From Candidatus Uhrbacteria bacterium (GTDB lineage Bacteria > Patescibacteriota > Patescibacteriia > JACQSD01), in assembly GCA_016206165.1 (NCBI GenBank), contig JACQSD010000040.1:1-43339 (forward strand): a stretch of DNA of 43,339 nt, read 5' to 3'. How positions within the stretch are numbered: the stretch's first letter is position 1; every line of letters begins with the position of its first letter. Below the pieces are notes generated by a model. That model worked only from the letters and a program-made list of their open reading frames with translations. It searched no databases and was not told the origin of the DNA. This document shows positions 5,608 to 40,557 of this stretch, one piece after another. The translations under genes and the position numbers were made by a program.

Positions 5608-6816
5608 ATGCAGATTTTTTTCATTCTTGGTTCGCATCCTGCACTCTCGATCGCGGAAATTACCGCGGTGCTCACGATGCGACAGATTGCATGGAAGAAT
5701 GTCACATCCTCAAATGAGGCGCTTATTCTTGATGTGCCAAAAGCAGTGGCGATTGACATTGCTTGGTTCGGCGGCGTTATCAAAATAGGTACAATCATCA
5801 CGACCACAACCGTCCGACTTTTGATCCGATCGGATCAAAAGTCGTTCATCACTCTTTTGCATCGCTCGGATGATGCGCGGAGGGTACAGTTTGGCGTGAG
5901 TGTCTACAAAGGGGAACAAGGAGTGCAGGTGGATACGTATAGGGCATTGGGTCAGCGTGTGGGGATGATGACGAAGCAGGCATTGCAGCAGCAAGGAGTC
6001 TCGGTACGGTTTGTGACGTCAAAGGAACGCGTGCTCTCATCGGTCATCGTTACGAAGGAGCATCTCCTCGAGCACGGCGCAGAGTTTGTTTTCATAGTCA
6101 CACGCGATCGTGTGTTCGTTGGGGCGACAACTGCGGTGCAAGCATTTGAAGAGTATGGTGCACGGGATTTTGGGCGCCCTGTTTCTGATGCGCGATCGGG
6201 CATGCTCCCGCCGAAGGTGGCAAAGATGATGGTGAATCTCACGGCAACCTCACCCCGACCCTCTCCTACAAGGAGAGGGGGAGATGTGGTTATTCTCGAT
6301 CCCTTCTGCGGGAGTGGGACCATTCTTCAAGAAGCACTGCTTCTGGGGTATACTGTGATCGGGTCAGATAAATCCCCGTCGGCAATTAAAGATGCAAAAA
6401 AAAACCTTACGTGGTTAAGAAATAATTTCCCAGTATCCCAGTATCCCAGTTTTCAAGTTTTTCAATCAGATATTAGGAAACTGGGAGATTACGTATCGCC
6501 ATCTTCCATTGATGCCATTGTCACTGAACCTTATCTTGGCCCTGCATTGCGTGCAATTCCCACAGAAGATAAATTGAAGCCTGTACTCCAAGAGCTCACG
6601 CAATTGTATGTTGATGCATTTGAAATTTTTTCACGGATCGTGAAACCAGGAGGGCGCGTCGTTTTTATCTTCCCTGTATTTCAAACTACCCCGCCAACCG
6701 CACTCTCGACGTTTGTACTACCGAAGATTACATGGAAACTCGAACAGACATTCCTCTACGGTCGCCCTGGGCAGAAGGTGTGGAGGGAAATTGGAATTTT
6801 TGAACGTAAGAACTAA
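5608..6816 (+). CDS. SAM-dependent RNA methyltransferase (Trm11/UPF0020-like)
   Basis: SAM motif I DPFCGSGTILQEA and motif IV VTEPYLG. The start is taken at MQIFFILGSHPALSIAEI (5608); the ORF track begins at 5566, inside an upstream helix. The gene carries an in-frame family-A repeat (TSPRPSPTRRGGDV). Confidence 0.72.
   Translation: MQIFFILGSHPALSIAEITAVLTMRQIAWKNVTSSNEALILDVPKAVAIDIAWFGGVIKIGTIITTTTVRLLIRSDQKSFITLLHRSDDARRVQFGVSVYKGEQGVQVDTYRALGQRVGMMTKQALQQQGVSVRFVTSKERVLSSVIVTKEHLLEHGAEFVFIVTRDRVFVGATTAVQAFEEYGARDFGRPVSDARSGMLPPKVAKMMVNLTATSPRPSPTRRGGDVVILDPFCGSGTILQEALLLGYTVIGSDKSPSAIKDAKKNLTWLRNNFPVSQYPSFQVFQSDIRKLGDYVSPSSIDAIVTEPYLGPALRAIPTEDKLKPVLQELTQLYVDAFEIFSRIVKPGGRVVFIFPVFQTTPPTALSTFVLPKITWKLEQTFLYGRPGQKVWREIGIFERKN
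6246..6291. repeat. Family-A element, in frame in the methyltransferase CDS
   Basis: AACCTCACCCCGACCCTCTCCTACAAGGAGAGGGGGAGATGTGGTT, translated TSPRPSPTRRGGDVV. Confidence 0.9.
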
Positions 6817-6866
6817 AGAACTCATGAACGTAGGAACAGATTTTGTTCATTCGTTCATCGGTTCTT
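6816..6866. repeat. GAAC-word hairpin between the methyltransferase and NUDIX genes
   Basis: AAGAACTCATGAACGTAGGAACA compared with the reverse complement of TGTTCATTCGTTCATCGGTTCTT gives 19 of 23 matches. Confidence 0.8.
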
Positions 6867-6878
6867 TCGTGACGCCGT

Positions 6879-7364
6879 ATGGTCCGAAAGACTATTTCTC
6901 TCTTTCTCTATCTTCCAAAAACACACGAGGTTGTGTTGTCGCGGCGGCGGGAGAATCAATCATATCCGGGGCTGTTGCAGCCGACGGCGCATGGGGATAT
7001 TGAGGAAGGTGAGGATGAAGTTGCTGCAGTTGCACGCGAGTTGAAAGAAGAAACTGGGCTCGGCGTTGAGCGCGTGCTTGAGCTTCGGCGTATTTCAAGC
7101 CGATCGTCGCTCACCGTGACATCAAAGTCTCCGTTTTATACATTTTACTGGATTGGTGGTATTGATGGCCGCAGCGCGAATCTATTGAAGCCAACTCCCG
7201 AGGTGTCGGAATTTCATCGGGTGTTGCAGGAGCATTTTGAGACCATTCGAAAATTTTCGCAATACAAAGACGCGAGTCGATCATATCTCTTTCGTGAGCC
7301 CACCATGTTCGACGACGACCGCGAAGTGCTCGCGGCTGTGTTTGAGACGATTATGAGGGGGTAG
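6879..7364 (+). CDS. NUDIX hydrolase
   Basis: Complete Nudix box GDIEEGEDEVAAVARELKEETGL (Gx5Ex7REx2EExGU). Confidence 0.85.
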   Translation: MVRKTISLFLYLPKTHEVVLSRRRENQSYPGLLQPTAHGDIEEGEDEVAAVARELKEETGLGVERVLELRRISSRSSLTVTSKSPFYTFYWIGGIDGRSANLLKPTPEVSEFHRVLQEHFETIRKFSQYKDASRSYLFREPTMFDDDREVLAAVFETIMRG

Positions 7365-7413
7365 CCGCAACCTTTAGGTTGCGTCGATGTGCGCCGGCTG
7401 AAGCCGTCGGCTA
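7361..7413 (+). terminator. Compound hairpin after the NUDIX gene
   Basis: The outer stem GTAGCCG/CGGCTAC encloses CGCAACC-TTTA-GGTTGCG and a GCCGGC-type hairpin. The tail is weakly T-rich. Confidence 0.4.
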
Positions 7414-7430
7414 CAATTTGATTTGGTTGG

Positions 7431-7459
7431 TTGACACGTAGCCTTTAACGGGGTACAGT
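7431..7459 (+). promoter_or_regulatory. Sigma-70-type promoter
   Basis: TTGACA-N17-TACAGT, upstream of the 7511 gene. Confidence 0.55.
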
Positions 7460-7510
7460 GTTTTTTGTATACAGGATATTCCTTGGTCTTTCACAATGAT
7501 TGGAGTCGGT

Positions 7511-7747
7511 ATGGCCGACGAACCGTTTAATCGATCCGTGACGATTCGGAAAGAGGGACATACGTACATCTTTCGATTTAAGAAGGGAGACGAGATCGCG
7601 GTATTTTACAGGATGATGGAGATGGCGATAGACGATGAGTTTAACCTCACCGTACGGGATCTCGTGCATCTTACATCGAAAGCTCTGAAACAGGCGAAGC
7701 CAAATTTCGAGGTCGATCTGGACAAGCAGAAACACACACCATGGTGA
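7511..7747 (+). CDS. Hypothetical small protein (78 aa)
   Basis: GGAG lies 7 nt upstream of ATG 7511 (alternative ATG at 7496), and a promoter sits at 7431-7459. The stop overlaps the RBS of the next gene. I recognised no family. Confidence 0.5.
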   Translation: MADEPFNRSVTIRKEGHTYIFRFKKGDEIAVFYRMMEMAIDDEFNLTVRDLVHLTSKALKQAKPNFEVDLDKQKHTPW

Positions 7748-7760
7748 AGGGAGTCGGGTA

Positions 7761-8624
7761 ATGGAACAGGGACGTCGTGGGTGGGTGATCGGTACAGTGT
7801 GGGTTGTGGGTTTCCTTGCTGCGTTCTCCGTCATCTCCATCGTGGTGCTCGTCTCGGGAATTCGCTGGCGGACGAGTGTCGATCAACAGCTTGCGCAGAC
7901 GGGATCGACCGCGATGGGGGCGAACACGGAGAACGTGCAACTGCCGGTTGAGGAGCCGGTGATCAAGGAGTCCGGAGTGGCGGAGCAGCGAGAAGAGCAG
8001 CGTGCGGAGGAACCTGCTGCGCCGCCCGCGTGGCAGCCGAATGCGACGCTGCGGATTCGAGAGAACAAGCGGATCGTCGAGCAATGTATCCGACGACACG
8101 AAGAGCTTCGGACGCGTATTGAACAGGCGTACGCAGCGCTCGGCGGGTATCGCGATGGGGTCCGGTTCACGAATGAAACCGCCGAATCGCGTGCGGTGCT
8201 TCAATGGGGCGGGCGACTTGCATCGCAGACTGCGCTCATGCGCGTTGCGATCGACGATTCGATCGAGGATCTCCGCGCGCTTGCGGCGCACGAGGAGTAC
8301 CAGCAAAGCCGCCTCTCGTATCACGGAACGCTTGTTCTCGATCCTGTGCGGACAATCGATCCAGAACGCCTGCCACGAAATGTGCAGATTGTCTACGAGT
8401 GGTTTTCTCGGTACGCCAAAGCGCTTGGCGACGTCGAGCGCGAATGGCGAGAGGGATTGAATCCCACGTATACCGCACTTTCGAATATGCTCGAGGCGGA
8501 GGCCGAGCGAGCGCGCAATCGGCGTGATGATGTTCTCCGTTCGCCACCGGACGGCGGGAGCAGTGCGTCTGTCGGAGCGGAGGCTCCGCCCGGCGAAGCC
8601 GGGTCCGGCTCCGCCGGAAAATGA
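7761..8624 (+). CDS. Hypothetical membrane-anchored protein (287 aa)
   Basis: RBS GAAGGGAG. N-terminal TM helix (WVIGTVWVVGFLAAFSVISIVVLV), then a charged helical region and a Gly/Ser/Ala tail. A strong terminator follows. GC-rich island. Confidence 0.6.
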   Translation: MEQGRRGWVIGTVWVVGFLAAFSVISIVVLVSGIRWRTSVDQQLAQTGSTAMGANTENVQLPVEEPVIKESGVAEQREEQRAEEPAAPPAWQPNATLRIRENKRIVEQCIRRHEELRTRIEQAYAALGGYRDGVRFTNETAESRAVLQWGGRLASQTALMRVAIDDSIEDLRALAAHEEYQQSRLSYHGTLVLDPVRTIDPERLPRNVQIVYEWFSRYAKALGDVEREWREGLNPTYTALSNMLEAEAERARNRRDDVLRSPPDGGSSASVGAEAPPGEAGSGSAGK

Positions 8625-8648
8625 CGCCGCACCAACGGGGGATCAAAA

Positions 8649-8687
8649 GAGCCTGCTTCACGGGGGAGCAGGCTCTATTATTTTTTT
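8649..8687. terminator. Bidirectional intrinsic terminator
   Basis: GAGCCTGCT-TCACGGGGG-AGCAGGCTC is followed by a T run on the plus strand and TTTTGATC on the minus strand. Confidence 0.8.
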
Positions 8688-8688
8688 A

Positions 8689-8726
8689 CATCACCTGGAG
8701 ATGTAGATATACATCTCCAGGTGATG
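8689..8726. repeat. Family-B palindrome (perfect 16-bp arms)
   Basis: CATCACCTGGAGATGT, then AGATAT, then ACATCTCCAGGTGATG. It lies between a terminator and the ychF stop. Confidence 0.92.
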
Positions 8727-8728
8727 AT

Positions 8729-9790
8729 TTATACGGAGAATCTGAAATGCATCACGTCACCGTCTTTCACCACATACTCTTTTCCTTCAAGGCGCAATAA
8801 TCCTTTTTCGCGTGCGGCTGATTCACTCCCGCAATCGATGAGATCCTTCCAAAACATTGTTTCTGCACGAATAAATCCTTTTTCAAAATCAGTGTGAATG
8901 ACGCCGGCCGCCTGCGGCGCTTTTGTTCCCTCGACGATCGTCCACGCGCGCGTTTCCTCTGGGCCACTCGTGAAGTAGGTGATGAGATGGAGGAGCTCGT
9001 AGCTTTTTTTGATGAGGCGATCAAGCCCGCTTTCGTTCCAGCCCAGTTCTTTGAGATAGGTCGCCGCCTCCTCGGGCGCGAGTTCTGAAAGTTCTGCCTC
9101 AATTTTTGCAGAGATGACGACAGTATTCGTCTCCGAGCCCTGTTGAGGAGCTACCTTGCCCTCATCCACATTGAGCACCGTGAGCACCGGTTTCATTGTG
9201 AGGAGTTGGAATCCGCGGATGAGTGTTGTTTCTTCTTCATCGAGCGCGACTGTTGCTGCACGTTTTCCTTCACGGAGTGCTGCGAGCACTTTTTCAATCG
9301 CAGCGAATTCATTTTGTGCATCTTCTAAACCCGCTTTTGCTTTTCCACTGATCGCCTCGCGCCGTTTTTCCATTGTTGCGAGGTCAGCCATGATGAGCTC
9401 GAGCATGATGATCTCTGCATCGGATTCTGGATTGACGGCACCAGAGACATGGATAATGTCTTTGTCGGTGAAGGCGCGGACGACGTGTGCGATTGCATCG
9501 CACTCGCGGATGTTTGCGAGGAATTTATTGCCAAGCCCCTCGCCTTTGTGTGCGCCTTGAACAAGTCCGGCGATATCAACAAATTCAATCGTCGCCGGAA
9601 TTATTTTTGCCGACTGCGAAACTTTTGCGAGCGCATCAAGGCGGTTATCCGGCACGGTGACGACGCCGACATTTGGGTCAATCGTGCAAAAGGGATAGTT
9701 CGCGATGTCCACCTGCTTTTTTGTCAGCGCCTTAAACAGCGTTGATTTTCCGACGTTGGGGAGTCCAACGATCGCGACGTGGAGAGACAT
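8729..9790 (-). CDS. ychF: Ribosome-binding ATPase YchF
   Basis: G1 motif VGLPNVGKSTLF, NYPFCTIDPNVG, and the C-terminal end EGKEYVVKDGDVMHFRF. Confidence 0.95.
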   Translation of the reverse strand: MSLHVAIVGLPNVGKSTLFKALTKKQVDIANYPFCTIDPNVGVVTVPDNRLDALAKVSQSAKIIPATIEFVDIAGLVQGAHKGEGLGNKFLANIRECDAIAHVVRAFTDKDIIHVSGAVNPESDAEIIMLELIMADLATMEKRREAISGKAKAGLEDAQNEFAAIEKVLAALREGKRAATVALDEEETTLIRGFQLLTMKPVLTVLNVDEGKVAPQQGSETNTVVISAKIEAELSELAPEEAATYLKELGWNESGLDRLIKKSYELLHLITYFTSGPEETRAWTIVEGTKAPQAAGVIHTDFEKGFIRAETMFWKDLIDCGSESAAREKGLLRLEGKEYVVKDGDVMHFRFSV

Positions 9791-9838
9791 ACATATAACA
9801 CCTGACAGCTGGCATCAAACATGTGACCAATCGGTCAA

Positions 9839-9859
9839 GTGTCATGTGTCACGTGTCAA
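9839..9859. repeat. Tandem heptamer GTGTCAN x3 upstream of ychF
   Basis: GTGTCAT GTGTCAC GTGTCAA. In the ychF sense orientation this reads TTGACAC GTGACAC ATGACAC. Confidence 0.85.
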
Positions 9860-9883
9860 ATGTCGTCTATCCTACCACGCCCC

Positions 9884-9912
9884 TTGTCTTTTTTCAATGC
9901 GCGTGATATTGT
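9884..9912 (+). promoter_or_regulatory. Putative promoter
   Basis: TTGTCT-N17-TATTGT, upstream of the 9961 gene. Confidence 0.35.
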
Positions 9913-9960
9913 TTTGCGAGACAAACACCAGATCGAACACAAACCACACGGAGGAGAGTC

Positions 9961-10506: not shown

Positions 10507-10531
10507 GTAGTCCTGCCGAAACGGCAGGAAC

Positions 10532-10566: not shown

Positions 10567-10577
10567 AATAAATTGAA

Positions 10578-10624: not shown

Positions 10625-10639
10625 CGAGAGAAGGCAGTG

Positions 10640-13150: not shown

Positions 13151-13185
13151 TCCCTCTCCTCGTAGGAGAGGGTTAGGGTGAGGTT
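13151..13185. repeat. Family-A element (inner hairpin plus right arm)
   Basis: TCCCTCTCCTCGTAGGAGAGGGTTAGGGTGAGGTT, directly after the xseA stop. Confidence 0.9.
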
Positions 13186-13200
13186 GTTCGTTGGATTGGA

Positions 13201-13240
13201 AACCTCACCTCAATCCTCTCCTAAAAGGAGAGGAGGGTGA
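13201..13240. repeat. Family-A element (left arm plus inner hairpin) supplying the xseB RBS
   Basis: AACCTCACCTCAATCCTCTCCTAAAAGGAGAGGAGGGTGA. Its left arm also pairs with the right arm of the copy at 13151-13185. Confidence 0.9.
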
Positions 13241-13242
13241 TT

Positions 13243-13455
13243 ATGAAAAAACAAAAACAATCATTTCAATCCGCATTTGAGGAGCTCGAAAAAATAACGG
13301 CTTCTTTTGAAGCTGGTGATATTGATCTTGATAAGGGGTTGAAAGAGTTCGAGCGCGGTCTCGAACTCGCGGTATTTTTGAAGAAACAACTCGCTGAGGT
13401 AGGGAATAAGGTAAACATCATCAAGCAGAAGTTTTCGGATACAAAGGGGGAATAG
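13243..13455 (+). CDS. xseB: Exodeoxyribonuclease VII small subunit
   Basis: SFQSAFEELEKITASFEAGDIDLDKGLKEFERGLEL. ATG 13243 lies 8 nt after the AAGGAGAGGA supplied by a family-A repeat. The ORF track uses GTG 13237. Confidence 0.85.
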   Translation: MKKQKQSFQSAFEELEKITASFEAGDIDLDKGLKEFERGLELAVFLKKQLAEVGNKVNIIKQKFSDTKGE

Positions 13456-13550: not shown

Positions 13551-14393
13551 ATGATCGGCATTTTTGATTCCGGATTTGGTGGCCTTACGGTTTTTAAACA
13601 TATTGCGGCGAAACTTCCGCAGTATGATTATATTTATCTTGGCGATAATGCACGGGCGCCGTACGGCAATCGATCACCGGAGACGATCTATCAATTTACG
13701 GTGGAAGCTGTTGATTGGCTTTTTAAACAAGGTTGCGAGCTCGTCGTCCTCGCATGTAATACCGCATCAGCAGAAGCTCTTCGAAAGATTCAACAGGAAT
13801 GGCTTCCTCAATACAAAGATCCCTCTCCTCATAGGAGAGGGGAGGGTGAGGTTTTGCGTCATCGTCGTGTCCTCGGCGTCATTCGTCCAATCGCGGAAGC
13901 GGCGGTTGCAGTGACAACGGGGCGCGTGGGAGTTGTCGGAACTCGTGCGACGATTGCATCACACGCGTATGAACGTGAATTGAAAAAGCTGAACCCCGAC
14001 GTGACCGTGTTTGAAACCGCATGTCCGTTGCTTGTGCCATTGATAGAAGAAGGCTGGGCAAAAAAATCGGAAACAAAACGGATTCTTCGGACGTATCTCC
14101 ATCCGCTCCGATTGAAGCAGCTCGATACGCTCATTCTCGGCTGTACGCACTACCCGATTTTGCTGAACGAGTTTGTGGCGAAGATGGGGAAGCAATGCAA
14201 AGTTTTAGATCCCGGGCCAATCGTTGCGGCGAGTTTGGCGGATTATCTTTCGCGACACCCTGAGATTGAAAATAAACTCACAAAGAAGGGGAATACCCGA
14301 TTCTGTACCACTGATACTTCGCAGCGTTTCAATGAACTTGGGAGTCAGTTTTTTGGAAAGTCGATTCAGGCGAAACGAGTACAGATATCCTGA
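13551..14393 (+). CDS. murI: Glutamate racemase
   Basis: IGIFDSGFGGLTV, plus the catalytic Cys motifs LACNTAS and GCTHYP. An in-frame family-A repeat gives DPSPHRRGEGEVLRH. Confidence 0.95.
   Translation: MIGIFDSGFGGLTVFKHIAAKLPQYDYIYLGDNARAPYGNRSPETIYQFTVEAVDWLFKQGCELVVLACNTASAEALRKIQQEWLPQYKDPSPHRRGEGEVLRHRRVLGVIRPIAEAAVAVTTGRVGVVGTRATIASHAYERELKKLNPDVTVFETACPLLVPLIEEGWAKKSETKRILRTYLHPLRLKQLDTLILGCTHYPILLNEFVAKMGKQCKVLDPGPIVAASLADYLSRHPEIENKLTKKGNTRFCTTDTSQRFNELGSQFFGKSIQAKRVQIS
13821..13853. repeat. Family-A element, in frame in murI
   Basis: CCCTCTCCTCATAGGAGAGGGGAGGGTGAGGTT, translated PSPHRRGEGEV. Confidence 0.9.
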
Positions 14394-14430
14394 ACCTCAC
14401 CCCGCCTCTTCTATGAGGAGAGGAGCGAGC
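14393..14430. repeat. Family-A element (degenerate) abutting the murI stop
   Basis: AACCTCACCCCGCCTCTTCTATGAGGAGAGGAGCGAGCG. Confidence 0.8.
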
Positions 14431-17220: not shown

Positions 17221-17294
17221 AACCTCATCCCAACCTTCTCCTAGAATGAGAAGGGGATTTCCCTCTCCTTCTAGGAGAGGGGGAGGGTGAGGTT
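17221..17294. repeat. Family-A composite: one outer arm pair enclosing two inner hairpins
   Basis: AACCTCATCCCAACCTTCTCCTAGAATGAGAAGGGG, then ATTT, then CCCTCTCCTTCTAGGAGAGGGGGAGGGTGAGGTT. It overlaps the 3' end of the DUF559 ORF. Confidence 0.9.
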
Positions 17295-20380: not shown

Positions 20381-21233
20381 CAAGCTGTTGATTGTTCGCA
20401 CTGCGCATGTTTTCTATGTTGCACTCGTTCTTTTTGTCGCACTTCTCTTTGTCGCGCCGCATTCTTTTATTTCTCCGGACATCGGAGGTACAATTTTAAC
20501 AATCACCACATTCCTCTTTGGGTTCATCGCGGGGTTTTATATTCTCCTGACAGCGACAGATTATAATACACTCAAGGGCTTGCTCGCGAATGAAACAGCA
20601 TCATGGATTGTTTTACACCAATACGTCACATTGTATATGCCAAGAACAGTATCCGCATTTACTGCACTTCTTGATACATACCTTCGTCGTGCATTTGATT
20701 TTGAAATTATTGATTATGCGCGCGGAACACAAGCGGAATTCGAACCAATGCGAGCGTGGGTGAATGCGTTACAACCAAAAAAGGGCATCGAGTACATTCA
20801 TGAAAATATTCAGGAGACAATGCAGGGAATTATTATCGGAAGACAGCAGCTCACCGTTCTCGGAACAAAAACACTCTCACTCTTTCAGTGGATGGTTCTT
20901 TGTACGCTCGCTGCGCTCGTTATTTTTTCATTGTATGGGGTACGCTCCGGAGAACTTTTTTTCGACATTGTTACGGTCTTAATCTCCAGTTCAGTCGTTT
21001 TGATATTACTCGTGATCCGCGATCTGGACCTTTATTTATGGAATGAAAAGACATTTGGCTATGACATTTTTGAAAATTTATTTAAAGCGATTGGGCAGCA
21101 GGCGTACTATCCGGAGGAGTCAATTCAAAAGGGGAGAATTCATCCGACAGAAGAGACGTATCGTGTTGGCGTCGTTACGAATCGACACACACTCGAGCGG
21201 CGGATTGATGTAGTGACGCAAAAGAAAATATGA
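20352..21233 (+). CDS. Hypothetical integral membrane protein (possibly DUF4239-like)
   Basis: There are two N-terminal and two C-terminal hydrophobic helices around a soluble helical core. The start is uncertain: ATG 20352 overlaps the pheS end by 29 nt. Confidence 0.55.
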   Translation: MIFASSSNFSKLLIVRTAHVFYVALVLFVALLFVAPHSFISPDIGGTILTITTFLFGFIAGFYILLTATDYNTLKGLLANETASWIVLHQYVTLYMPRTVSAFTALLDTYLRRAFDFEIIDYARGTQAEFEPMRAWVNALQPKKGIEYIHENIQETMQGIIIGRQQLTVLGTKTLSLFQWMVLCTLAALVIFSLYGVRSGELFFDIVTVLISSSVVLILLVIRDLDLYLWNEKTFGYDIFENLFKAIGQQAYYPEESIQKGRIHPTEETYRVGVVTNRHTLERRIDVVTQKKI

Positions 21234-23734
21234 ATCTTCTCGTTTCGTATAATTGGTTGAAGGAGTTTGTTGCTATCAAACAGTCGCCGGAAAAAGTGGC
21301 GGAGTTGTTGAGTTTGCATGCGTTGTCCGCAGAACGCCTGTATCACATTGCGAAGCAAATGGACAAGATGGTCATTGGGAAGGTCGTGAAGACGGAAAAA
21401 CATCCAAATGCGGATAAGCTTTCTCTGAATCAGGTTGATGTTGGTGGTAAAACAGTGCAGATTGTTTGTGGTGCGCCAAATGTGCATGCAGGAATGCTTG
21501 TTGCAGTTGCGTTGCCGGGTGCAAGAGTTCGTTGGCATGGCGAAGGGGATTTGGTCACACTTTCCGCGACAAAAATCCGTGGCATCGAAAGTTTTGGTAT
21601 GATGTGTGCCGCGAATGAGATTGGACTTGAAAAATATCCGGATGCCGCGAAAGGGATTATTGATCTCTCGTGGTTGCAATATACAGAGAACGGGTCTCTG
21701 GATTCCAGAGACCCGTTCTCTGGAGTTCGACCGGGGATGTCGCTCGTCAAAGCACTCGACATGGATGATGTGCTTATGGATGTGGAGGTGACATCGAATC
21801 GGCCCGATGCCATGTCGATTGTTGGGGTTGCACGCGAGGTCGCCGCTGTTCTGAATGCGAAGTTGAGCTTACCTACCTCTCCCCAACCCTCTCCTACTAG
21901 GAGAGGGAGTAAGGGTGAGGTTCCGATCTCGCTTTCCGTGGATATCCGTGCTAAAAAGTTATGCACGCGGTTTGCCGCGATTGCGATTGATGGCGTGAAG
22001 GTGGGCCCATCGCCATGGTGGATACAGAAGCGATTGTTCATGGCTGGGCTTCGTCCTATCAATAATATTGTCGACATTACGAATTACGTCATGCTCGAGC
22101 AGGGGAAGCCGTTGCACGCGTTTGATGCTGATAAGATCACTGAATCATTGAATCACGGAATCACGGAATCACACATTATTGTCCGAACTGCGCAGAAAGG
22201 GGAGTCGTTGAAGGCACTCGATGGAAGAATATATCCGCTTACGGAATCCATGCTTGTTGTCGCGGACGCGCAACGTTCACTCGCGATCGCAGGTGTCATG
22301 GGTGGTGAAGCAACCGGTGTAACAGAAAAAACAAAAACAATTATTTTTGAATCCGCAGTTTTTGATCCAGTTTCTATCCGTCACACGGCGCGTGCATTGA
22401 ATCTCCATTCCGAGGCATCGAATCTTTTTGAAAAAGGCTTGTCGGACGAATCCGTGCTCCCTGCGCTTGCCCGTGCGGTGGAGTTGACACTTGAGATTGC
22501 GGGAGGACAGGTGGCGTCGAAACTTGTTGACACACGAACACAGAAACACAGAATCACAAGAATCATTTTGAAATCGAAAACAATCGAACGGATGCTTGGC
22601 ATTACCCTTTCGGTGAAAGATGTTGTTCGCTACCTCACCGCACTCGGTTTTAACATCGAAGCAACGAGCAAGAAGCAACGAGCAAGAAGCTGGCGCGTGA
22701 CCGCGCCATGGTGGCGCCATCACGATGTGACCATTGAAGCAGATCTCGTCGAAGAAATTGCGCGGTTCTATGGTTATCACCATCTCCCATCGAAACTCCC
22801 CGATGGTCCACTTGCGACGCAAGATGCAACCGACAAAAAAATATTTTTCTGGGAGCGTCGCGTCAAAGAGCTGCTTCGTGGTGCAGGGTATACCGAAACC
22901 ATGAGCTATTCGTTTACATCCGAAGCAGCGATTCAAAAACTTGGACTTGATCCGGCGCAGTCGATCCGCATTGTGAATCCGCTCACCGATGATCATGCAT
23001 ATCTCCGCCCACGCCCGATTGCTGCACTCCTTGAGATTGTGAGCGCAAATCAAAATGATCGCGATCATATTCACATTTTTGAACTTGCGCGGATGTTCCG
23101 TCCGCGTGTGGGGAAACTTCCTGATGAGCCTCTCCGTCTCGCTGGTGCAGTCGTATCCGCGGACGTATTTCGCGAGGCAAAAGGTACTGTGGAATTATTT
23201 TTGCATGGCATGGGGATTGCTTCGCAGCGGATCAGTTTTCCAGAGTATATGGAAGACGAGTTTGCGCCATGGGTAGATACGCGCCGGAGCGTGCGCATTA
23301 TGATTGACAACGAGAAGTTTGGTTCGGTGATCATGCTGACGGAAAAAGCGCGCAAAAATTTTGATCTTAAGCAAGATGTTGCGCTGTTTCGGATACGGTT
23401 CGAGGAATTGACTGCGCTTGCGACGACCACGCATGGATATACGCCGTTGCCAAAGTATCCGCCCGTACTCCGCGACCTTGCGTTTATTGTGCCGAAGACC
23501 GTGACGTACGCCGCGATTGACGCCGTGCTTCGGAAGCAAGCGCTCGTCACGTCGGTTGAACTCTTTGATCTCTATGAAGGCGAAAAGATTGGTGCGGATA
23601 AAAAGAGTCTCGCGTTTCACGTCACCTATCAATCACCTGAACGAACGCTCACGATCGCGGAGGTGGATGTCGTACAGGAGGCGATGATTAAGGAACTCGA
23701 AAAAAAGTTTGGGGCACAATTGAGGGATTTTTGA
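21230..23734 (+). CDS. pheT: Phenylalanine--tRNA ligase beta subunit
   Basis: N-terminal tRNA-binding OB (KHPNADKLSLNQVDVGG), the B3/B4 and B5 regions, and a C-terminal FDX-ACB-like end. The ATGA overlap with the previous gene is present. It carries at least four in-frame repeat insertions. Confidence 0.95.
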   Translation: MNLLVSYNWLKEFVAIKQSPEKVAELLSLHALSAERLYHIAKQMDKMVIGKVVKTEKHPNADKLSLNQVDVGGKTVQIVCGAPNVHAGMLVAVALPGARVRWHGEGDLVTLSATKIRGIESFGMMCAANEIGLEKYPDAAKGIIDLSWLQYTENGSLDSRDPFSGVRPGMSLVKALDMDDVLMDVEVTSNRPDAMSIVGVAREVAAVLNAKLSLPTSPQPSPTRRGSKGEVPISLSVDIRAKKLCTRFAAIAIDGVKVGPSPWWIQKRLFMAGLRPINNIVDITNYVMLEQGKPLHAFDADKITESLNHGITESHIIVRTAQKGESLKALDGRIYPLTESMLVVADAQRSLAIAGVMGGEATGVTEKTKTIIFESAVFDPVSIRHTARALNLHSEASNLFEKGLSDESVLPALARAVELTLEIAGGQVASKLVDTRTQKHRITRIILKSKTIERMLGITLSVKDVVRYLTALGFNIEATSKKQRARSWRVTAPWWRHHDVTIEADLVEEIARFYGYHHLPSKLPDGPLATQDATDKKIFFWERRVKELLRGAGYTETMSYSFTSEAAIQKLGLDPAQSIRIVNPLTDDHAYLRPRPIAALLEIVSANQNDRDHIHIFELARMFRPRVGKLPDEPLRLAGAVVSADVFREAKGTVELFLHGMGIASQRISFPEYMEDEFAPWVDTRRSVRIMIDNEKFGSVIMLTEKARKNFDLKQDVALFRIRFEELTALATTTHGYTPLPKYPPVLRDLAFIVPKTVTYAAIDAVLRKQALVTSVELFDLYEGEKIGADKKSLAFHVTYQSPERTLTIAEVDVVQEAMIKELEKKFGAQLRDF
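21870..21922. repeat. Family-A element, in frame in pheT
   Basis: TACCTACCTCTCCCCAACCCTCTCCTACTAGGAGAGGGAGTAAGGGTGAGGTT, translated LPTSPQPSPTRRGSKGEV. Confidence 0.9.
22150..22173. repeat. 8-nt tandem GAATCACG x3, in frame in pheT
   Basis: GAATCACG GAATCACG GAATCACA, translated within TESLNHGITESH. Confidence 0.9.
22531..22567. repeat. ACACAGAA/AATCAC word block, in frame in pheT
   Basis: It contains the 21-mer CACAGAAACACAGAATCACAA at 22539-22559. The 21-mer is identical to the pheS copy but is read in a different frame (TQKHRIT instead of HRNTESQ). Confidence 0.9.
22661..22690. repeat. Exact 14-nt tandem GCAACGAGCAAGAA x2 (+GC), in frame in pheT
   Basis: The 30-nt block is translated ATSKKQRARS. 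The 14-nt period is not a multiple of 3. Confidence 0.9.
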
Positions 23735-23766: not shown

Positions 23767-23840
23767 TAACTCCTCCCAACCTCCTCTTGTCTCAAGAGGA
23801 GGAGACCCCCTCTTAAGGTAAGAGGGGTGTGGGGAGTTAT
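23767..23840. repeat. Divergent family-A-like composite (outer arms plus two inner hairpins)
   Basis: The outer arms ATAACTCCTCCCAAC and GTGTGGGGAGTTAT enclose CCTCCTCTTGTCTCAAGAGGAGG and CCCCTCTTAAGGTAAGAGGGG. Confidence 0.75.
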
Positions 23841-23975: not shown

Positions 23976-24011
23976 AACCTCATCCCAGCCTTCTCCTAGA
24001 AGGAGAAGGAG
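23976..24011. repeat. Family-A element directly upstream of the dnaE start
   Basis: AACCTCATCCCAGCCTTCTCCTAGAAGGAGAAGGAG. Its right inner arm is the only SD-like sequence before ATG 24020. Confidence 0.9.
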
Positions 24012-24019
24012 ATCCAGAT

Positions 24020-28607: not shown

Positions 28608-29718
28608 AGTGGCGAGCCCAAAATTTCTTCTCTACAAGCGGCTTGCGGTGGGATTTTTGTGTCTCACATTCCTTTTTATTCTCATCATTGGCATCGTGAC
28701 GTATTGGACCGCAACGATTACGATTGTCCCCGCGCGCATCCCTGCAGAAACAACGTTCCGTGCGATTGTCGTGCAGGGGAGAGAGGAGGTTGCCGGTGCA
28801 CTGGTTCCCGGTGCCATCGATACCGCACTCTTGACAGGCACGGGAGAAATTTCAGTTCCGACGACCGAGCGCGTTGAAGGAAAGGCGCGTGGAAAAGTGA
28901 CGATTAAAAATACATCGAGCCGTGCGCAGCCATTGGTCGTGAAGACGCGGCTGCTCACGAACAACGGCGTGCTCTTCCGTTTAACAAAGAGTGTTGACGT
29001 TCCTCCGAAGGGATCGGTCGAGGCTCCAGTTGAGGCAGATGTCGCGGGTGCAGAAGGAGATCTTACACCAACGCGGTTCACGATCCCGGGGCTCAACCCG
29101 CAACTCCAAGAGCTCATTTATGCCGAGTCGTCAAAACCCATGGAAGGAGGGTTGCGTATGATTGGAGTTGTCGGGCAAGATCATCTTGATCAGGCGGTTG
29201 CCGCAGCGAAAGAGAACGCAGTGAAGACATTTACCGATGCGCATCCTGCGCAAGCACGCGTTTCTTTCTTTGATCGCGTTGACGTGCTTCGCGTAAAAAC
29301 AGAAGAGAAAGTTGGTGATAAAACATCGGTCGTGCATGGGGAAGCGCAGGTGCGGATTACCCGCGTGCGCGTACCCCTCGAACATCTTGAGGAGGTGGGT
29401 GCAGTGAAGTTGAGTGAGGCCATTGGCAATCGTATTACGTTGCTTCCATTACCACTGACGATTGATGCGACACTCGATGCGGTCGACACAAAAACGGGCC
29501 GCGCATCATTGACCGTGCATACGATTGGGTATAGCGCAGTCGACAAAGCAAGCCCTGCGCTTGCCCTTGATCAGTTTGTGGGGAAGTCGCGCGGGCTCAT
29601 CGAAAAATCACTCCGCGATCTTCCGGGGGTTGCGAGCGTCCGCGTGCAGATTCGCCCATTCTTTATGCCCCGCACGCCGTATTTGCAGGATCACATCAGT
29701 ATTGTCGTGAGTAAGTAA
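28582..29718 (+). CDS. Membrane-anchored hypothetical protein (possibly of the family often annotated baseplate J-like in CPR genomes)
   Basis: RBS GAGGA. It overlaps the GGDEF gene by 26 nt. An N-terminal TM helix (LAVGFLCLTFLFILIIGIVTYW) is followed by a beta-rich ectodomain (GKVTIKNTSSRAQPLVVKTRLLTNNGVLFRL). The family assignment is from memory only. Confidence 0.55.
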   Translation: MPKKEQSPEVASPKFLLYKRLAVGFLCLTFLFILIIGIVTYWTATITIVPARIPAETTFRAIVVQGREEVAGALVPGAIDTALLTGTGEISVPTTERVEGKARGKVTIKNTSSRAQPLVVKTRLLTNNGVLFRLTKSVDVPPKGSVEAPVEADVAGAEGDLTPTRFTIPGLNPQLQELIYAESSKPMEGGLRMIGVVGQDHLDQAVAAAKENAVKTFTDAHPAQARVSFFDRVDVLRVKTEEKVGDKTSVVHGEAQVRITRVRVPLEHLEEVGAVKLSEAIGNRITLLPLPLTIDATLDAVDTKTGRASLTVHTIGYSAVDKASPALALDQFVGKSRGLIEKSLRDLPGVASVRVQIRPFFMPRTPYLQDHISIVVSK

Positions 29719-29730
29719 TTAATGTAAATT

Positions 29731-29777
29731 GACCTCACCCCAACCCTCTCATTGTAGGAGAGGGCGCGGGTGAGGTT
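29731..29777. repeat. Family-A element, full length, intergenic
   Basis: GACCTCACCCCAACCCTCTCATTGTAGGAGAGGGCGCGGGTGAGGTT. Confidence 0.9.
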
Positions 29778-29801
29778 ATTCGCAGCTCTCGGATTTTATT
29801 T

Positions 29802-31553
29802 ATGACGCAGGATCAGCAACAAAAACTGCAACAGATTCGTCATTCACTCGCGCACTTAACGGTTGCGGCAGCGAAATCACTGTGGCCAGGAACATGTAAT
29901 GCGATTGGCCCTGCGATTGATGATGGGTTTTATCAGGATTTTGATTTTGGTACGCACACAATTTCAGAAAAAGATTTCCCAAAACTTGAGAAGCGCATGC
30001 GTGAAATTCTAAAACACTGGAAACCATTTAAGGAATGGGAGGTTTCTGTCGAGGAAGCACGGAAGATGTTTGCGAATAATCCTTATAAACTCGAGCTTAT
30101 TGAAGATTTTGCAACGAAGGGGCAAAAGATTACAGTGAACGACCCGGGGAATTTTCTCGATCTTTGTCGTGGTGGGCATTCAGACAATCCAAAAGAGGAC
30201 ATGAAGCATTTTAAACTTCTCTCTACCGCAGGCGCATATTGGCGTGGGGACGAAAAGAAAAAGATGTTGACCCGCATTTATGGAACAGCTTTCTTTACCG
30301 ATGAAGACTTGCAAAAGCATTTAACGATGCTCGAGGAGGCGAAGAAACGTGATCATCGGAAACTTGGGGTTGAACTTGATCTTTTCACGTTTTCTGATCT
30401 TGTTGGGCCTGGACTTCCACTCTGGACACCACGGGGGACACTCATCCGTAATCTTCTTAATGATTTTGTGTGGGAATTACGGCGGGCACGTGGCTATGAG
30501 CGCGTGACAATCCCGCATATCACAAAAAAGGATCTGTATGAGAAAAGTGGGCATTGGGATAAGTTTAAGAATGAACTTTTCCGCATCACAACGCGCGAAG
30601 AACATGTATTTGCAATGAAGCCGATGAATTGTCCGCACCACATCCAGATTTTTAAGCGCCAGCCGCACAGCTATCGTGAAATGCCGCAGCGCTATACGGA
30701 AACAACAATGGTCTATCGCGATGAACAGACGGGCGAACTCTCTGGTCTTTCGCGCGTGCGCTGCATTACGCAAGACGATGCGCATGTATTTTGCCGGCAA
30801 AGTCAGATTAAGGATGAGTTCTTGAAAGTGTGGGATATCATTGATGCGTTTTATAAGGCAGTTGGATTTTCTGTTTTGGATGTTCGGCTTTCACTCCACG
30901 ACCCCAAACATTTTGAAAAATATCTTGGGACGCCAGAGCTTTGGAAAGAGGCAGAGGGGAGTCTTCGTGCGATTGCAACGGAGCGCGCAAAGCAATTTAC
31001 TGAAGCACCAGGTGAGGCAGCGTTTTATGGTCCAAAGGTTGATTTTATGGCGCACGATTCAATCGGTCGGCAGTGGCAGGTCGCGACAATCCAACTCGAC
31101 ATCAACATGCCGGAACGCTTTGATCTCACGTGCGTGAATGAGAAAGGTGAGAATGAACGTATTGTCATGATCCATGCGGCCATCATGGGTTCGATCGAGC
31201 GTTTTGTTTCTGTACTCATCGAACATCACGCCGGTGCATTCCCCACGTGGTTAGCGCCGGTGCAGGTTCAAGTACTCCCAGTGAGTACAAAGCATGATCG
31301 GTCGGCGAAGAAGTTGACGAAGTTATTGCTCGAGGCCGGTATTCGCGTCCATTGTGATGACGCGAACGAAACCGTCGGCTACAAAATCCGCAAGGCAGAG
31401 AAGCAGAAGGTGCCCTACATGCTTGTGATTGGCGACAAGGAAGCGAAGCTCACGAAACTCGCTGTCCGCCTCCGTGGTCAACAGAAGACAAAGGATATGA
31501 TGGTGAAGAAGTTTGTGGAGCGTGTGACGAAGGAGATAGAGAAGAGAAAATAA
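29802..31553 (+). CDS. thrS: Threonine--tRNA ligase lacking the N-terminal TGS domain
   Basis: The editing-domain motif RHSLAHL sits at residues 13-19, whereas I recall it near residue 70 in the E. coli enzyme. Class II core and anticodon-binding C-terminus follow. 583 aa. Confidence 0.94.
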   Translation: MTQDQQQKLQQIRHSLAHLTVAAAKSLWPGTCNAIGPAIDDGFYQDFDFGTHTISEKDFPKLEKRMREILKHWKPFKEWEVSVEEARKMFANNPYKLELIEDFATKGQKITVNDPGNFLDLCRGGHSDNPKEDMKHFKLLSTAGAYWRGDEKKKMLTRIYGTAFFTDEDLQKHLTMLEEAKKRDHRKLGVELDLFTFSDLVGPGLPLWTPRGTLIRNLLNDFVWELRRARGYERVTIPHITKKDLYEKSGHWDKFKNELFRITTREEHVFAMKPMNCPHHIQIFKRQPHSYREMPQRYTETTMVYRDEQTGELSGLSRVRCITQDDAHVFCRQSQIKDEFLKVWDIIDAFYKAVGFSVLDVRLSLHDPKHFEKYLGTPELWKEAEGSLRAIATERAKQFTEAPGEAAFYGPKVDFMAHDSIGRQWQVATIQLDINMPERFDLTCVNEKGENERIVMIHAAIMGSIERFVSVLIEHHAGAFPTWLAPVQVQVLPVSTKHDRSAKKLTKLLLEAGIRVHCDDANETVGYKIRKAEKQKVPYMLVIGDKEAKLTKLAVRLRGQQKTKDMMVKKFVERVTKEIEKRK

Positions 31554-38752: not shown

Positions 38753-38782
38753 TTCGAATCGTGGAATGTGTGATACAATAAT

Positions 38783-38815
38783 CCCGCCCTGTCATTCGAT
38801 GGGGCGGGGTTGTCT
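38783..38815 (+). terminator. Hairpin after the giant gene
   Basis: CCCGCCC-loop-GGGGCGGGG followed by TTGTCT. The T tract is weak. Confidence 0.45.
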
Positions 38816-39463
38816 ATGAAGAAATATTTTTTTATCTTATTTTTACTCGGATTCATTGTCGTCGTACCTGCAGTTGCTCATGGCGCACGGGAAACCTCAC
38901 CCCAACCCTCTCCTTTGAGGAGAGGGGAGGGTGAGGTGAAAACAGCACGCGATCTTGATCGTGACGGACTCACCGATGCAGAGGAAAAGGTGCTTGGTAC
39001 GGATCCACGGCGGACAGATACGGATGGTGATGGGTATGCGGATCGACTTGAGATTGAGAATGGATTTAGTCCATTGGATCCGGCGCCAAAGCAAACATTA
39101 AAAAAGATTGTCATTGAGATTAAGAAGCAACGACTCTCGTACTATCTTGGCAAAAAAAAGTTAGGAACATTCAAGATTTCCACGGGGAAGCAAGCAACGC
39201 CGACACCCTATGGCGTGCATAAGATTTTGAATAAGGATAAACGAGCGTGGTCGAGCATGGCGAAACTTTGGATGCCGTGGTGGATGGGGTTTAAGGCTGG
39301 CGGCTATGGAATTCATGAGCTACCGGAGTGGCCGGGAGGAAAAAAAGAAGGAGCGAACCACCTTGGTACGCCCGTGTCCCATGGTTGTGTCCGTCTCGGC
39401 GTCGGCCCCGCAAAAAAACTCTACGACTGGGCAGCGGTGGGGACGATCGTCATAGTTCAATAA
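38816..39463 (+). CDS. L,D-transpeptidase (YkuD) with TSP3-type Ca-binding repeats
   Basis: Signal peptide MKKYFFILFLLGFIVVVPAVAHG. DLDRDGLTDAEE and DTDGDGYAD repeats. Catalytic GIHELP...TPVSHGCVRLG. An in-frame family-A repeat lies just after the signal peptide (ETSPQPSPLRRGEGEV). Confidence 0.85.
   Translation: MKKYFFILFLLGFIVVVPAVAHGARETSPQPSPLRRGEGEVKTARDLDRDGLTDAEEKVLGTDPRRTDTDGDGYADRLEIENGFSPLDPAPKQTLKKIVIEIKKQRLSYYLGKKKLGTFKISTGKQATPTPYGVHKILNKDKRAWSSMAKLWMPWWMGFKAGGYGIHELPEWPGGKKEGANHLGTPVSHGCVRLGVGPAKKLYDWAAVGTIVIVQ
38893..38937. repeat. Family-A element, full length, in frame in the L,D-transpeptidase
   Basis: AACCTCACCCCAACCCTCTCCTTTGAGGAGAGGGGAGGGTGAGGT, translated TSPQPSPLRRGEGEV. 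Confidence 0.92.
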
Positions 39464-39600
39464 ACCCTAAACTCTAAATCCGAAACAAACACAAATGATC
39501 AAAATCCCCGCCTCCGCGCGCTTCGGCGGGCAGGCAAAACATTTGAACATTTGAATTTTGAACATTGTTTAGAATTTCGACATTCGAATTTAGAGTTTTT
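39462..39600. repeat. Spacer-wide imperfect palindrome built from CTCTAAA/TTTAGAG and CAAATG/CATTTG words around a GC hairpin
   Basis: AACTCTAAATCCGAA (39469-39484) pairs with TTCGAATTTAGAGTT (39583-39598). The central hairpin CCCGCC...GGCGGG lies at 39507-39530. Confidence 0.75.
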
Positions 39601-40557
39601 ATGCAGCCGTCGTTGATCGTCATCCTTGGTCCCACCGCTTCTGGAAAAACTGCGCTCGGCATCGAGGTTGCTCAAAAAATCGGTGGCGAAGTGATTTCCG
39701 CGGACTCGCGGCAGATTTATCGTGAGCTGAATATCGGCGCGGCGAAACCGTATCTCTCCTCGCCTTTTAGGAGAGGAGACGGAGGTGAGGTTATCATCGA
39801 CGGCATCCCACACCACCTCGTTGATATTGTTAATCCAGACCAGTCATACTCGGTTGCAGATTATCAACGCGATGCGATGCGGGTGATCGCCGATATTCAT
39901 GCACGCAGAAAGGTTCCAGTGATCGTCGGAGGTACTGGGCTGTATATCCAAGCGGTCGTTGATCAACTTTACATTCCGAAAATTCCGGAAGACAAGACAT
40001 TGCGTGCATCGCTCGCGCAGAGCATCGCCGCACGCGGGATTGATGCGCTGTATCTCGATCTCTTGAAACGTGACCCCGCGGCGAAGGATGTCGTGCAGTC
40101 AAAGAATCCTCGGCGCGTCATTCGTGCGCTCGAGGTTTGTATGAAGACAGGGGAACCATTTACGTCGTTTCTAAAGAAGGGGAATCTACCATTCCCAGTA
40201 TTCCAGATAGGGATCGAGTGGCCGCGTCTGGAATTGAATGAACGGATCAATCGTCGCGTGGACGAAATGATGGCGGCAGGACTTTTGGATGAAGTACGCA
40301 GCCTTGGCGCGAAGTATGGGTGGGAGCTGCCGTCCATGTCTGGGCATGGGTATCGGCAGCTCGGGATGCATCTCCGGGGTGAGCTCTCTCTTGACGTGGC
40401 AGTCACGCTCACAAAACAGGAGACGCGACAGTACGCAAAACGGCAAATGACGTGGTTCAAACGCGACCCGAGAATTCAGTGGTTTCCGCGTGGTGAGGGG
40501 GCACTTGATATGGTACAAGAAGTTTTAAAACAAAAAGCACCCTTGTTGTCAGGATGA
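39601..40557 (+). CDS. miaA: tRNA dimethylallyltransferase
   Basis: P-loop ILGPTASGKT, DSRQIYRELNIGAAKP and GIPHHLVDI. The start is taken at MQPSLIV. A family-A repeat sits between the AAKP and PHHL motifs. Confidence 0.93.
   Translation: MQPSLIVILGPTASGKTALGIEVAQKIGGEVISADSRQIYRELNIGAAKPYLSSPFRRGDGGEVIIDGIPHHLVDIVNPDQSYSVADYQRDAMRVIADIHARRKVPVIVGGTGLYIQAVVDQLYIPKIPEDKTLRASLAQSIAARGIDALYLDLLKRDPAAKDVVQSKNPRRVIRALEVCMKTGEPFTSFLKKGNLPFPVFQIGIEWPRLELNERINRRVDEMMAAGLLDEVRSLGAKYGWELPSMSGHGYRQLGMHLRGELSLDVAVTLTKQETRQYAKRQMTWFKRDPRIQWFPRGEGALDMVQEVLKQKAPLLSG
39753..39792. repeat. Family-A element, in frame in miaA
   Basis: TCTCTCCTCGCCTTTTAGGAGAGGAGACGGAGGTGAGGTT, translated SSPFRRGDGGEV. Confidence 0.88.

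Follow-up and report, generated by a model that had tools for sequence, protein, structure and literature searches.

Five conserved genes on contig JACQSD010000040.1 of a Candidatus Uhrbacteria bacterium contain copies of one short repeat, and in all five open reading frames (ORFs) the repeat reads as nearly the same peptide. Positions 1 to 43,339 of the contig were analyzed, and this stretch is called the window here. This locus raises the question of what the repeat is, how it came to lie in conserved genes, and how these genes have remained open. In a preliminary description, the repeat had been taken for a new palindrome of unrelated sequence that is always read in the same frame and that mirrors the Rickettsia palindromic elements (RPEs). 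The explanation favored here, with an estimated probability of about 75%, is that the copies are tolerated, RPE-like insertions of a selfish repeat of the BoxC/PIT/TMECO family, which have been filtered by selection.

Architecture and identity of the repeat

With the core hairpin CCTCTCCT-N-AGGAGAGG as the query, 14 copies were retrieved on both strands of the window, and the motif GGGTGAGG was found 11 times, compared with 0.73 expected occurrences. The unit has five parts, i.e., a pyrimidine stem (CCCTCTCCT), a loop of 3 nt, a purine stem (AGGAGAGGG), a second loop of 3 nt (loop 2), and GGGTGAGGT as the third strand. As this strand is the mirror image of the purine stem, a purine-motif (class II) triad is possible at each position. 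The reverse complement of the unit represents the "left-tail" form, and copies with a tail on both sides resemble palindromes of 46 nt. These "full palindromes" look palindromic because the unit carries a third-strand tail on either side. The lengths of the window units range from 33 to 49 nt, and the canonical design of 9-nt strands separated by two 3-nt loops is present in 11 units.

The window was also analyzed with a triplex finder, which required a pyrimidine stem, its complement, and an antiparallel third strand and allowed the triads G*G, A*A, and T*A. It detected 15 strand-specific units, versus none in 100 dinucleotide-preserving shuffles. Decomposition of the units yielded 9/9 Watson-Crick pairs and 9/9 valid triads in most cases. 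In several variants, all three strands covary from C-G*G to T-A*A. The variant at 13215 reads TCCTCTCCT / AGGAGAGGA / AGGTGAGGT, and the variants at 17235, 17661, and 23990 read CCTTCTCCT / AGGAGAAGG / GGATGAGGT. Two further sequence families in the window, with unrelated stems, obey the same triplex design. The three-way covariation supports the view that the predicted triplex geometry, beyond the hairpin alone, has been preserved.

By sequence and design, the element can be identified as the intrastrand-triplex motif known as BoxC, PIT, or TMECO from E. coli and cyanobacteria, which is said to have been treated also by Bachellier (1990s) and by Hoyne & Maher (2000). A copy from E. coli K-12 (CCCTCTCCCTTGAGGGAGAGGGTTAGGGTGAGGGT) and the window copy at 13152-13185 (CCCTCTCCTCGTAGGAGAGGGTTAGGGTGAGGTT) represent the same element, and two K-12 copies from the hrpB-mrcB spacer could be aligned with window copies and with copies from four other phyla (e.g., ...GGAGAGGGTTAGGGTGAGGGT in E. 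coli versus ...GGAGAGGGTTAGGGTGAGGTT in the window). The published TMECO pattern is CCCTCNCCC-N3-6-GGGNGAGGG-N3-GGGNGAGGG with one tolerated mismatch (Holder et al. 2015, PMC4666352). According to the same study, the motif was formerly named BoxC or PIT (potential intrastrand triplex), 23 copies are listed for E. coli K-12, and a single strand of the E. coli sequence forms the triplex in vitro (circular dichroism or nuclear magnetic resonance). The 11 canonical window units depart from this pattern solely at the ninth triad, at which all three strands differ jointly (T-A*T across the window family versus C-G*G in E. coli). The label of an unrelated, new palindrome thus had to be abandoned: the sequence and the design match BoxC/PIT/TMECO, and the structure is a hairpin with a mirror-repeat third strand instead of a plain palindrome.

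The motifs from the two sources share the three-block design, a near-identical sequence, and a second loop of 3 nt, including the TTA "type A" loop. In both cases, the copies are dispersed, numerous, and mostly intergenic, they occur in both orientations and in inverted pairs, their number differs between relatives, and no transposase accompanies them. Apart from the ninth triad, the differences concern the host, which is a bacterium of the candidate phyla radiation (CPR) here, the forms with both tails, which are common in the window, and the location. In the window, 5 of the 14 copies are in frame inside genes; in E. coli K-12, by contrast, the motif is "always intergenic" (PMC4666352). For the E. 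coli motif, no link to mobile elements and neither promoter nor terminator activity were found, and it is associated with local instability (PMC4666352).

The distribution of the repeat was analyzed by scanning each bacterial species, represented by a single genome, for CCCTCTCCT-N3-AGGAGAGGG-N1-5-GGGTGAGGT, which retrieved at least 118 stretches. Among the matches listed, exact matches were found in more than 15 phyla. They include the CPR groups Gottesman-, Parcu-, Gracili-, Peri-, Magasanik-, and Nomurabacteria, Melainabacteria, Cyanobacteria (Nostoc, Dolichospermum, Calothrix, Chroococcus), Chloroflexota, Ignavibacteriota, Bacteroidota, Armatimonadota, Acidobacteriota, Cloacimonadota, Verrucomicrobiota, Spirochaetia, Bosea, Methylobacterium, Rickettsiales, and Gammaproteobacteria. 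Most of the matches listed consist of the hairpin and a 3' GGGGTGAGGT tail only, and therefore the unit is asymmetric and not a palindrome. Shine-Dalgarno or anti-Shine-Dalgarno mimicry was considered as a reason for the conservation across phyla and was dropped; the mirror (triad) rule accounts better for the variants.

Copies inside conserved genes

Translation of the ORFs recovered five in-frame copies, in a Trm11-like methyltransferase, MurI, PheT, a YkuD transpeptidase, and MiaA, with exactly the peptides that had been described (Table 1). The five inserts share the pattern (T)SPxPSPxRRGEGEV, and examples of peptides that span a junction are ...NLTATSPRPSPTR and ...DPSPHR. Pfam identified the hosts as UPF0020/Trm11-like methyltransferase, MurI (Asp_Glu_race), PheT, YkuD L,D-transpeptidase with a TSP3 repeat, and MiaA (IPPT). 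In the case of the methyltransferase, MurI, and MiaA, the insert is spanned by the domain match; the inserts of PheT and YkuD are located outside the matched domains.

Compared with close orthologs or solved structures, the five copies are to be regarded as insertions or lineage-specific segments and not as ancestral sequence. In the methyltransferase, the insert immediately precedes S-adenosylmethionine (SAM) motif I (ILDPFCGSG), and the 9 extra residues are absent from 11/11 aligned orthologs; the right third strand of this copy has decayed (AGATGTGGT). The MurI insert is placed between LACNTAS and GVIRP, where the alignment with the structure 1zuw has a gap. The MurI loop is short and free of an insert in a more distant relative (L124, 59% PheT identity), and in the nearest relative (L123) it contains 10 inserted residues of unrelated sequence. 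The YkuD insert begins right behind the signal peptide, and its 15 residues are lacking in two orthologs of about 80% identity (L003 and L001, the latter being the syntenic relative contig). The MiaA insert lies between AAKP and IPHHL. It coincides with an 11-residue gap in the structures 2qgn and 3d3q, and two orthologs of about 70% identity (P0003, P0004) do not contain it; a better preserved copy in a different frame occupies this site in a relative represented by two assemblies (L001/L002). The positions originally given for the MurI and MiaA inserts, the siting in variable loops or linkers, and the lack of a shared ancestral segment were thus all borne out by the ortholog alignments and the structure gaps.

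AlphaFold models fit a loop location for the two inserts for which they were considered. In the methyltransferase model, the only segment with a predicted local distance difference test score (pLDDT) below 50, residues 216-224 of 402, falls within the insert, and in the MiaA model the insert is predicted to form a beta-hairpin excursion with a pLDDT of 86-89.

PheT is a less simple case. The insert lies in the linker joining the tRNA-binding and the B3_4 domains. All CPR orthologs examined differ in the sequence and length of this linker, and in relatives it is of a length similar to that of the insert-bearing one. The PheT copy is thus best described as a replacement or an insertion in a hypervariable segment, not as a clean addition. 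Two more lineage-specific insertions, unrelated to the triplex element, are present in PheT at 21671-21715 (WLQYTENGSLDSRDP) and at 22136-22159 (ITESLNHG, with an internal ITES repeat), and other CPR orthologs of PheT bear insertions of their own, e.g., NNPLTPFAKGEQKKRGTT in P0131. Similarly, CPR orthologs have other lineage-specific inserts in the MiaA loop (39745-39800), namely IKCQMSNVKCQVSG, KKSNIKNQNGF, and PLLYPPLFQKGRIKGG, some of which are repeat-like. This suggests that the MiaA loop may be a hot spot of insertion.

An artefact of assembly or annotation, i.e., mis-joined repeats or ORFs that are not real across the element, would have to be considered since the window looks metagenome-assembled and repeats can cause chimeric joins. 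However, synteny with an independent relative contig spans every site, the Pfam alignments of the methyltransferase, MurI, and MiaA keep one frame on either side of the insert, the MiaA copy is present in two independent assemblies (L001, L002), and similar in-frame copies occur in isolate genomes (Dolichospermum, Anabaena). The probability of an artefact is therefore close to negligible.

Reading frame and stop codon avoidance

All five in-gene copies read CCC TCT CCT nnn AGG AGA GGG. One alternative frame meets the TGA of GGGTGAGG, as had been claimed and as frame translation confirmed. The numbers of open frames in the five copies are 3, 2, 2, 1, and 2, which results in a chance of 1/24 that all five share one frame. 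As this is a post-hoc test with n = 5, the common frame is only suggestive of a meaningful bias.

The second loop gave a clearer picture. With canonical loops of 3 nt, the used frame continues as ...AGG AGA GGG nnn GGG TGA and thus runs into a stop codon. Inside genes, three right tails on the sense strand are intact, and their loop 2 has lengths of 2, 2, and 5 nt, versus 3 nt in eleven and 36 nt in one of the 12 other intact tails, i.e., exclusively multiples of 3 (Fisher's exact p=0.0022). The other two in-gene right tails have decayed. The altered lengths would move the TGA out of frame, which argues that the in-gene copies are translated, because such a signature of stop avoidance would be expected if stop codons were selected against. 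Excision before translation, similar to an intron or intein, was also considered and was rejected, because preservation of the frame and avoidance of the TGA would then be needless.

The used frame is at the same time the self-symmetric frame of the hairpin, and because the first loop has 3 nt, the identical peptide core is obtained in either orientation. The claim that the repeat is always read in the same frame held within the window (5/5), but not beyond it. In the MiaA of the relative, the copy at the same site and with the same TTT loop is read as HPLLLGEGGVR, with compensating indels on either side. Of seven in-gene copies found elsewhere, six are read with the core PLLxGEG, a comparison that is biased by a search pattern demanding an intact third strand. 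These six are located in UvrD of a metagenome-assembled genome (MAG) labelled Gammaproteobacteria, a NadB-like flavoprotein of Gottesmanbacteria, an Eco57I-type methylase of Dolichospermum / Anabaena, LigA of Gracilibacteria, a PMT-like protein of Gottesmanbacteria, and a DUF1156 methylase of Chloroflexi; the seventh, in PyrD of Anaerolineales, is read as SPxRRG. The Pfam match covers the insert in four proteins (UvrD, PyrD, the NadB-like flavoprotein, and the Eco57I-type methylase) and not in the other three.

Two additional observations were made on in-gene copies outside the window. The Eco57I-type methylase of Dolichospermum contains two in-frame units in tandem (L095 ~4120-4225; TSPLTPLLGGE TSPLTPLLGGEG) and that of Anabaena a single one (L117 ~5215-5250), which reads as a copy-number change of the element within a gene. 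In the MAG labelled Gammaproteobacteria (L029), an ORF for a membrane protein of 687 residues without a Pfam match contains three motif copies, which are read in two core frames (PSPLRRGG, PSPQRRGIKGEV, LPLLTGEGRGVR).

These results also bear on the explanation that the copies inside genes have a function and are under positive selection, either as a signal for translational pausing or co-translational folding or as a useful peptide module TSPxPSPxRRGEGEV. It would be in line with the use of one frame in 5/5 copies though canonical units are closed there (chance ~1/24), with inserts at domain or motif boundaries (behind the signal peptide, in front of SAM motif I, in the interdomain linker of PheT), with the very high stability of the hairpins, and with a purine arm that resembles a ribosome-binding site and is found at that position for xseB and dnaE. 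Nevertheless, this explanation is distinctly unlikely. Orthologs at 60-80% identity lack the inserts, the oldest copy, in MiaA, has lost its structure and is matched in the relative by a copy in another frame with another peptide, other phyla mostly read the same DNA as PLLxGEG, and the E. coli motif lacks promoter and terminator activity (PMC4666352).

Spread of the repeat and comparison with known elements

The copies are strongly depleted from coding DNA and enriched in intergenic DNA, with 5 of 14 copies within coding DNA though about 90% of the window is coding (P ~1e-6). Table 1 summarizes all sites.

Table 1. Copies of the triplex repeat and units of the same design in the 43,339-nt window
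Feature	Position	Strand	Form	Insert peptide (position)
In-gene, Trm11-like methyltransferase (ORF 5608-6816)	6246..6291	+	left tail and hairpin intact	TSPRPSPTRRGGDV (6247-6288)
In-gene, MurI (13551-14393)	13821..13853	+	R-form unit (hairpin + GGGTGAGGT), 2-nt loop 2	PSPHRRGEGEV (13821-13853)
In-gene, PheT (21230-23734)	21874..21922	+	both tails, 5-nt loop 2 on sense side	TSPQPSPTRRGSKGEV (21875-21922)
In-gene, YkuD L,D-transpeptidase (38816-39463)	38893..38938	+	near-perfect 46-nt palindrome	TSPQPSPLRRGEGEV (38894-38938)
In-gene, MiaA (39601-40557)	39753..39792	+	decayed unit	SSPFRRGDGGEV (39757-39792)
Intergenic, 7 nt past recA stop codon	2213..2280	+	36-nt second hairpin between hairpin and GGGTGAGGT	
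Inverted pair, xseA-xseB spacer	13152..13234	.	R-form 13152-13185, L-form 13201-13234	
Intergenic, convergent murI / 883-residue ORF	14393..14424	-	decayed unit	
Two adjoining intergenic units, inverted pair	17222..17294	.	variant L-form 17222-17254, R-form 17261-17294	
Intergenic, 13 nt 3' of trpS stop codon	17647..17680	-	variant unit, T-A*A triple substitution	
Intergenic, directly 5' of dnaE	23976..24009	-	variant unit, absent from relative L123	
Intergenic, 5' of thrS	29732..29777	.	unit with both tails; relative has 2-nt spacer only	
Upstream of dnaE	23768..23838	.	two units with different stems and same triplex design (finder and decomposition)	

The L-form at 17222-17254 has the sequence CCTTCTC.. 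/ ..GAGAAGG / GGATGAGGT. Of the two units with different stems, the one at 23768-23801 (-) reads CCTCCTCTT/AAGAGGAGG/GGAGGAGTT with 9/9 pairs and 9/9 triads, and the one at 23807-23838 (+) reads CCCCTCTTA/TAAGAGGGG/GGGGAGTTA with 9/9 pairs and 8/9 triads. One extra match of the loose hairpin search was a false hit, namely the anticodon stem of a minus-strand tRNA gene just past miaA (40565-40639).

Some intergenic copies adjoin the starts of genes. At xseB (13226-13245), a GGAGG from the purine arm of the second unit is positioned 6 nt 5' of the ATG (13243), and at dnaE the purine arm AGGAGAAGGAGA (24001-24012) ends 6 nt before the ATG (24019). The purine arms of these two copies thus fall exactly on the ribosome-binding position, and the pyrimidine arm could mask it. 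The 5' end of thrS has been remodelled by the insertion (29718-29802 versus 19396-19399 of L123): at the start codon of the relative, ATG TAA is found in the window, and the start used is a new ATG about 80 nt downstream. Elsewhere in the window, at 716-1099, an HTH_25 gene precedes the gene of a 23S rRNA intervening-sequence protein (PF05635).

The nearest relative, contig JBFOMO010000898.1, is syntenic from murI to miaA, and its MiaA and PheT are 79% and 76% identical to those of the window. In about 36 kb of the relative (L001 + L123), one copy is present, i.e., that in MiaA, versus 10 copies in the matching part of the window, and the sites upstream of dnaE and thrS are empty. On the basis of these copy numbers, the repeat family can be said to have expanded recently in this CPR lineage (Patescibacteria, Uhr-/Magasanikbacteria-like). 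The structural integrity of a copy tracks its age. The YkuD copy, which is absent in relatives, has a predicted RNA fold of -35.2 kcal/mol (z -5.6), versus -14.5 kcal/mol (z about -0.9) for the MiaA copy, which is shared with the relative.

An origin without transposition, by template switching, slippage, or gene conversion during local replication or repair at structure-prone sites, together with hypervariable loops that tolerate indels, would also be compatible with part of these results. Extra bases that do not belong to the element accompany it at the thrS and dnaE sites, neither a target-site duplication (two sites) nor a transposase (window) was found, relatives have unrelated insertions in the same loops of MurI, MiaA, and PheT, a unit was tandemly duplicated in frame in the Dolichospermum methylase versus one copy in Anabaena, and Holder et al. 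tie the motif to local instability (PMC4666352). However, near-identical units of 33 nt at 14 unlinked sites of the window and in more than 15 phyla require copying from a template, and simple polymerase template switching cannot make a mirror repeat. A purely local origin is thus very unlikely.

We therefore prefer tolerated insertion of a selfish BoxC/PIT/TMECO repeat. The repeat would spread as non-autonomous copies that are recognised via their single-strand structure by an enzyme encoded outside the window. Most copies landed at gene boundaries. A copy inside a gene would survive if it lay in a variable surface loop or linker and if the net length change preserved the reading frame. Survival would further depend on the pyrimidine arm, which is stop-free in all frames, and on a loop 2 of 2 or 5 nt, or decay of the third strand, which shifts the single TGA out of frame. 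The insert would then be translated as a flexible peptide rich in Pro, Ser, Arg, and Gly, and the copies, as neutral passengers, would afterwards decay. The stages after insertion, i.e., filtering for frame, stop codons, and structure as well as neutral decay, are reasonably supported.

Several points weigh against this explanation. The window contains no mobilising enzyme; Pfam scans of 25 of its ORFs yielded no transposase or mobilising gene. Terminal inverted repeats were not found, and no target-site duplication was visible in the comparisons of filled and empty sites at dnaE and thrS, for which the nearest relative is only about 80% identical at the amino acid level and exact insertion boundaries are unreadable. 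Likewise, a connection of the E. coli motif with mobile elements was not found by Holder et al. (PMC4666352). The term "mobile element" is derived solely from presence and absence between relatives, and translation of the inserts from a sequence signature. Finally, the shared frame in 5/5 copies (P ~0.04) goes beyond what stop avoidance alone explains, as the used frame is closed, and the PLLxGEG frame open, in canonical units with loops of 3 nt.

The last point would be accommodated if the BoxC/triplex motif were a structure-defined, pan-bacterial mobile element of 33 nt, the folded strand of which is recognised by machinery borne by hosts or phages, and which actively colonises the coding DNA of many phyla and seeds new loops in proteins. 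The CPR sub-family with 2-nt loops would then be frame-specialised, and the 5/5 bias would be real. This extended scenario is speculative, and we regard it as unlikely. A metagenome scan for the 2-nt-loop sub-family yielded 8 matches, all of which were intergenic, so that no copies were usable for an analysis of frame bias.

Two observations on the distribution are of interest independently of this. The exact motif was also found in 29 stretches of viral contigs from IMG/VR (L134-L162), sometimes with 2-3 copies per contig, and viral contigs are a possible route between phyla. At loci of Bosea and Methylobacterium (L015, L033, L075, L077, and others), the motif lies within a longer conserved repeat, gcgcggggaa-CCCTCTCC...GGGTGAGGT-gtaggcc, and often forms REPIN-like inverted pairs 70-150 bp apart. 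Long ORFs across the Bosea and Methylobacterium copies were not counted as genes, as they are probably spurious in high-GC genomes.

Among known systems, RPEs, reportedly described by Ogata et al. 2000, are the closest analogue of the in-frame insertion. RPEs and the window element are short, dispersed palindromic repeats that lie in frame in unrelated housekeeping genes of reduced-genome bacteria, and both lead to a recurrent peptide at fold-compatible positions. In contrast, RPEs have about 100-150 bp and are confined to Rickettsia (reviewed in PMC10969869), whereas the window element has 33-49 nt, a triplex architecture, a distribution over many phyla, and a reading frame that is not fixed across lineages. 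By size and host, it is not an RPE, and its sequence appears to be unrelated. The parallel with RPEs thus persists for in-frame insertion into conserved genes and for the recurrent peptide, but not for the novelty of the sequence.

The repeat also resembles whalefall-1 (RF01762), which was read as a small RNA gene and is known from whale-fall metagenomes only (Weinberg et al. 2010, PMC2864571). In an Rfam search of the window, the copy at 2213-2280 aligned end to end with whalefall-1 with 25.3 bits, below the gathering threshold of 37 bits; the other copies did not match whalefall-1, and no other family was found. The similarity comprises the first hairpin (CUCUCC/GGAGAG) and the tail (GGGUGAGG), and in the published seeds, hairpin 1 and the purine tail likewise follow the mirror rule (GGAGAGG...GGUGAGG; GGGGAGA...AGAGGGA). 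The difference is that 13/14 window copies have no second hairpin. Instead of a small RNA gene, whalefall-1 may thus represent the DNA triplex repeat in a variant with two hairpins.

Repetitive extragenic palindromic (REP) elements and REPINs with their RAYTs, and MITEs (miniature transposable elements with inverted repeats; ERIC, Anabaena MITEs, QMITE1), are likewise short structured repeats near gene ends, some in inverted pairs, and bacterial MITEs occasionally form in-frame fusions inside genes (PMC10969869). However, the window copies lack the GTAG head of REPs, the window contains no RAYT or transposase gene, the terminal inverted repeats of MITEs and, at the dnaE and thrS sites, their target-site duplications were not seen, and the triplex repeat is common to many phyla and not species-specific.

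Taken together, the sequence family is already known. In-frame triplex motifs in conserved genes of CPR bacteria and elsewhere, the loop-length signature, and the three-way covariation appear to be new; a literature search retrieved nothing specific on in-frame palindromic elements in CPR or on coding regions with intrastrand triplex repeats. Knowledge of BoxC/triplex motifs goes back about 30 years, and to our knowledge neither a function nor a means of spread has been established. The natural pairs of filled and empty sites make the origin of BoxC testable, because movement can be traced with them, and the in-gene copies with their signature of stop avoidance offer evidence that ribosomes may read through the motif. 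For annotation, many segments of the type "PSPxRRGEGEV / PLLxGEGxGV" that recur in metagenomic proteins, as well as spurious small ORFs, can be accounted for by the motif. Beside the RPEs of Rickettsia, it represents a second and far more widespread system in which selfish repeats make loop insertions in proteins.

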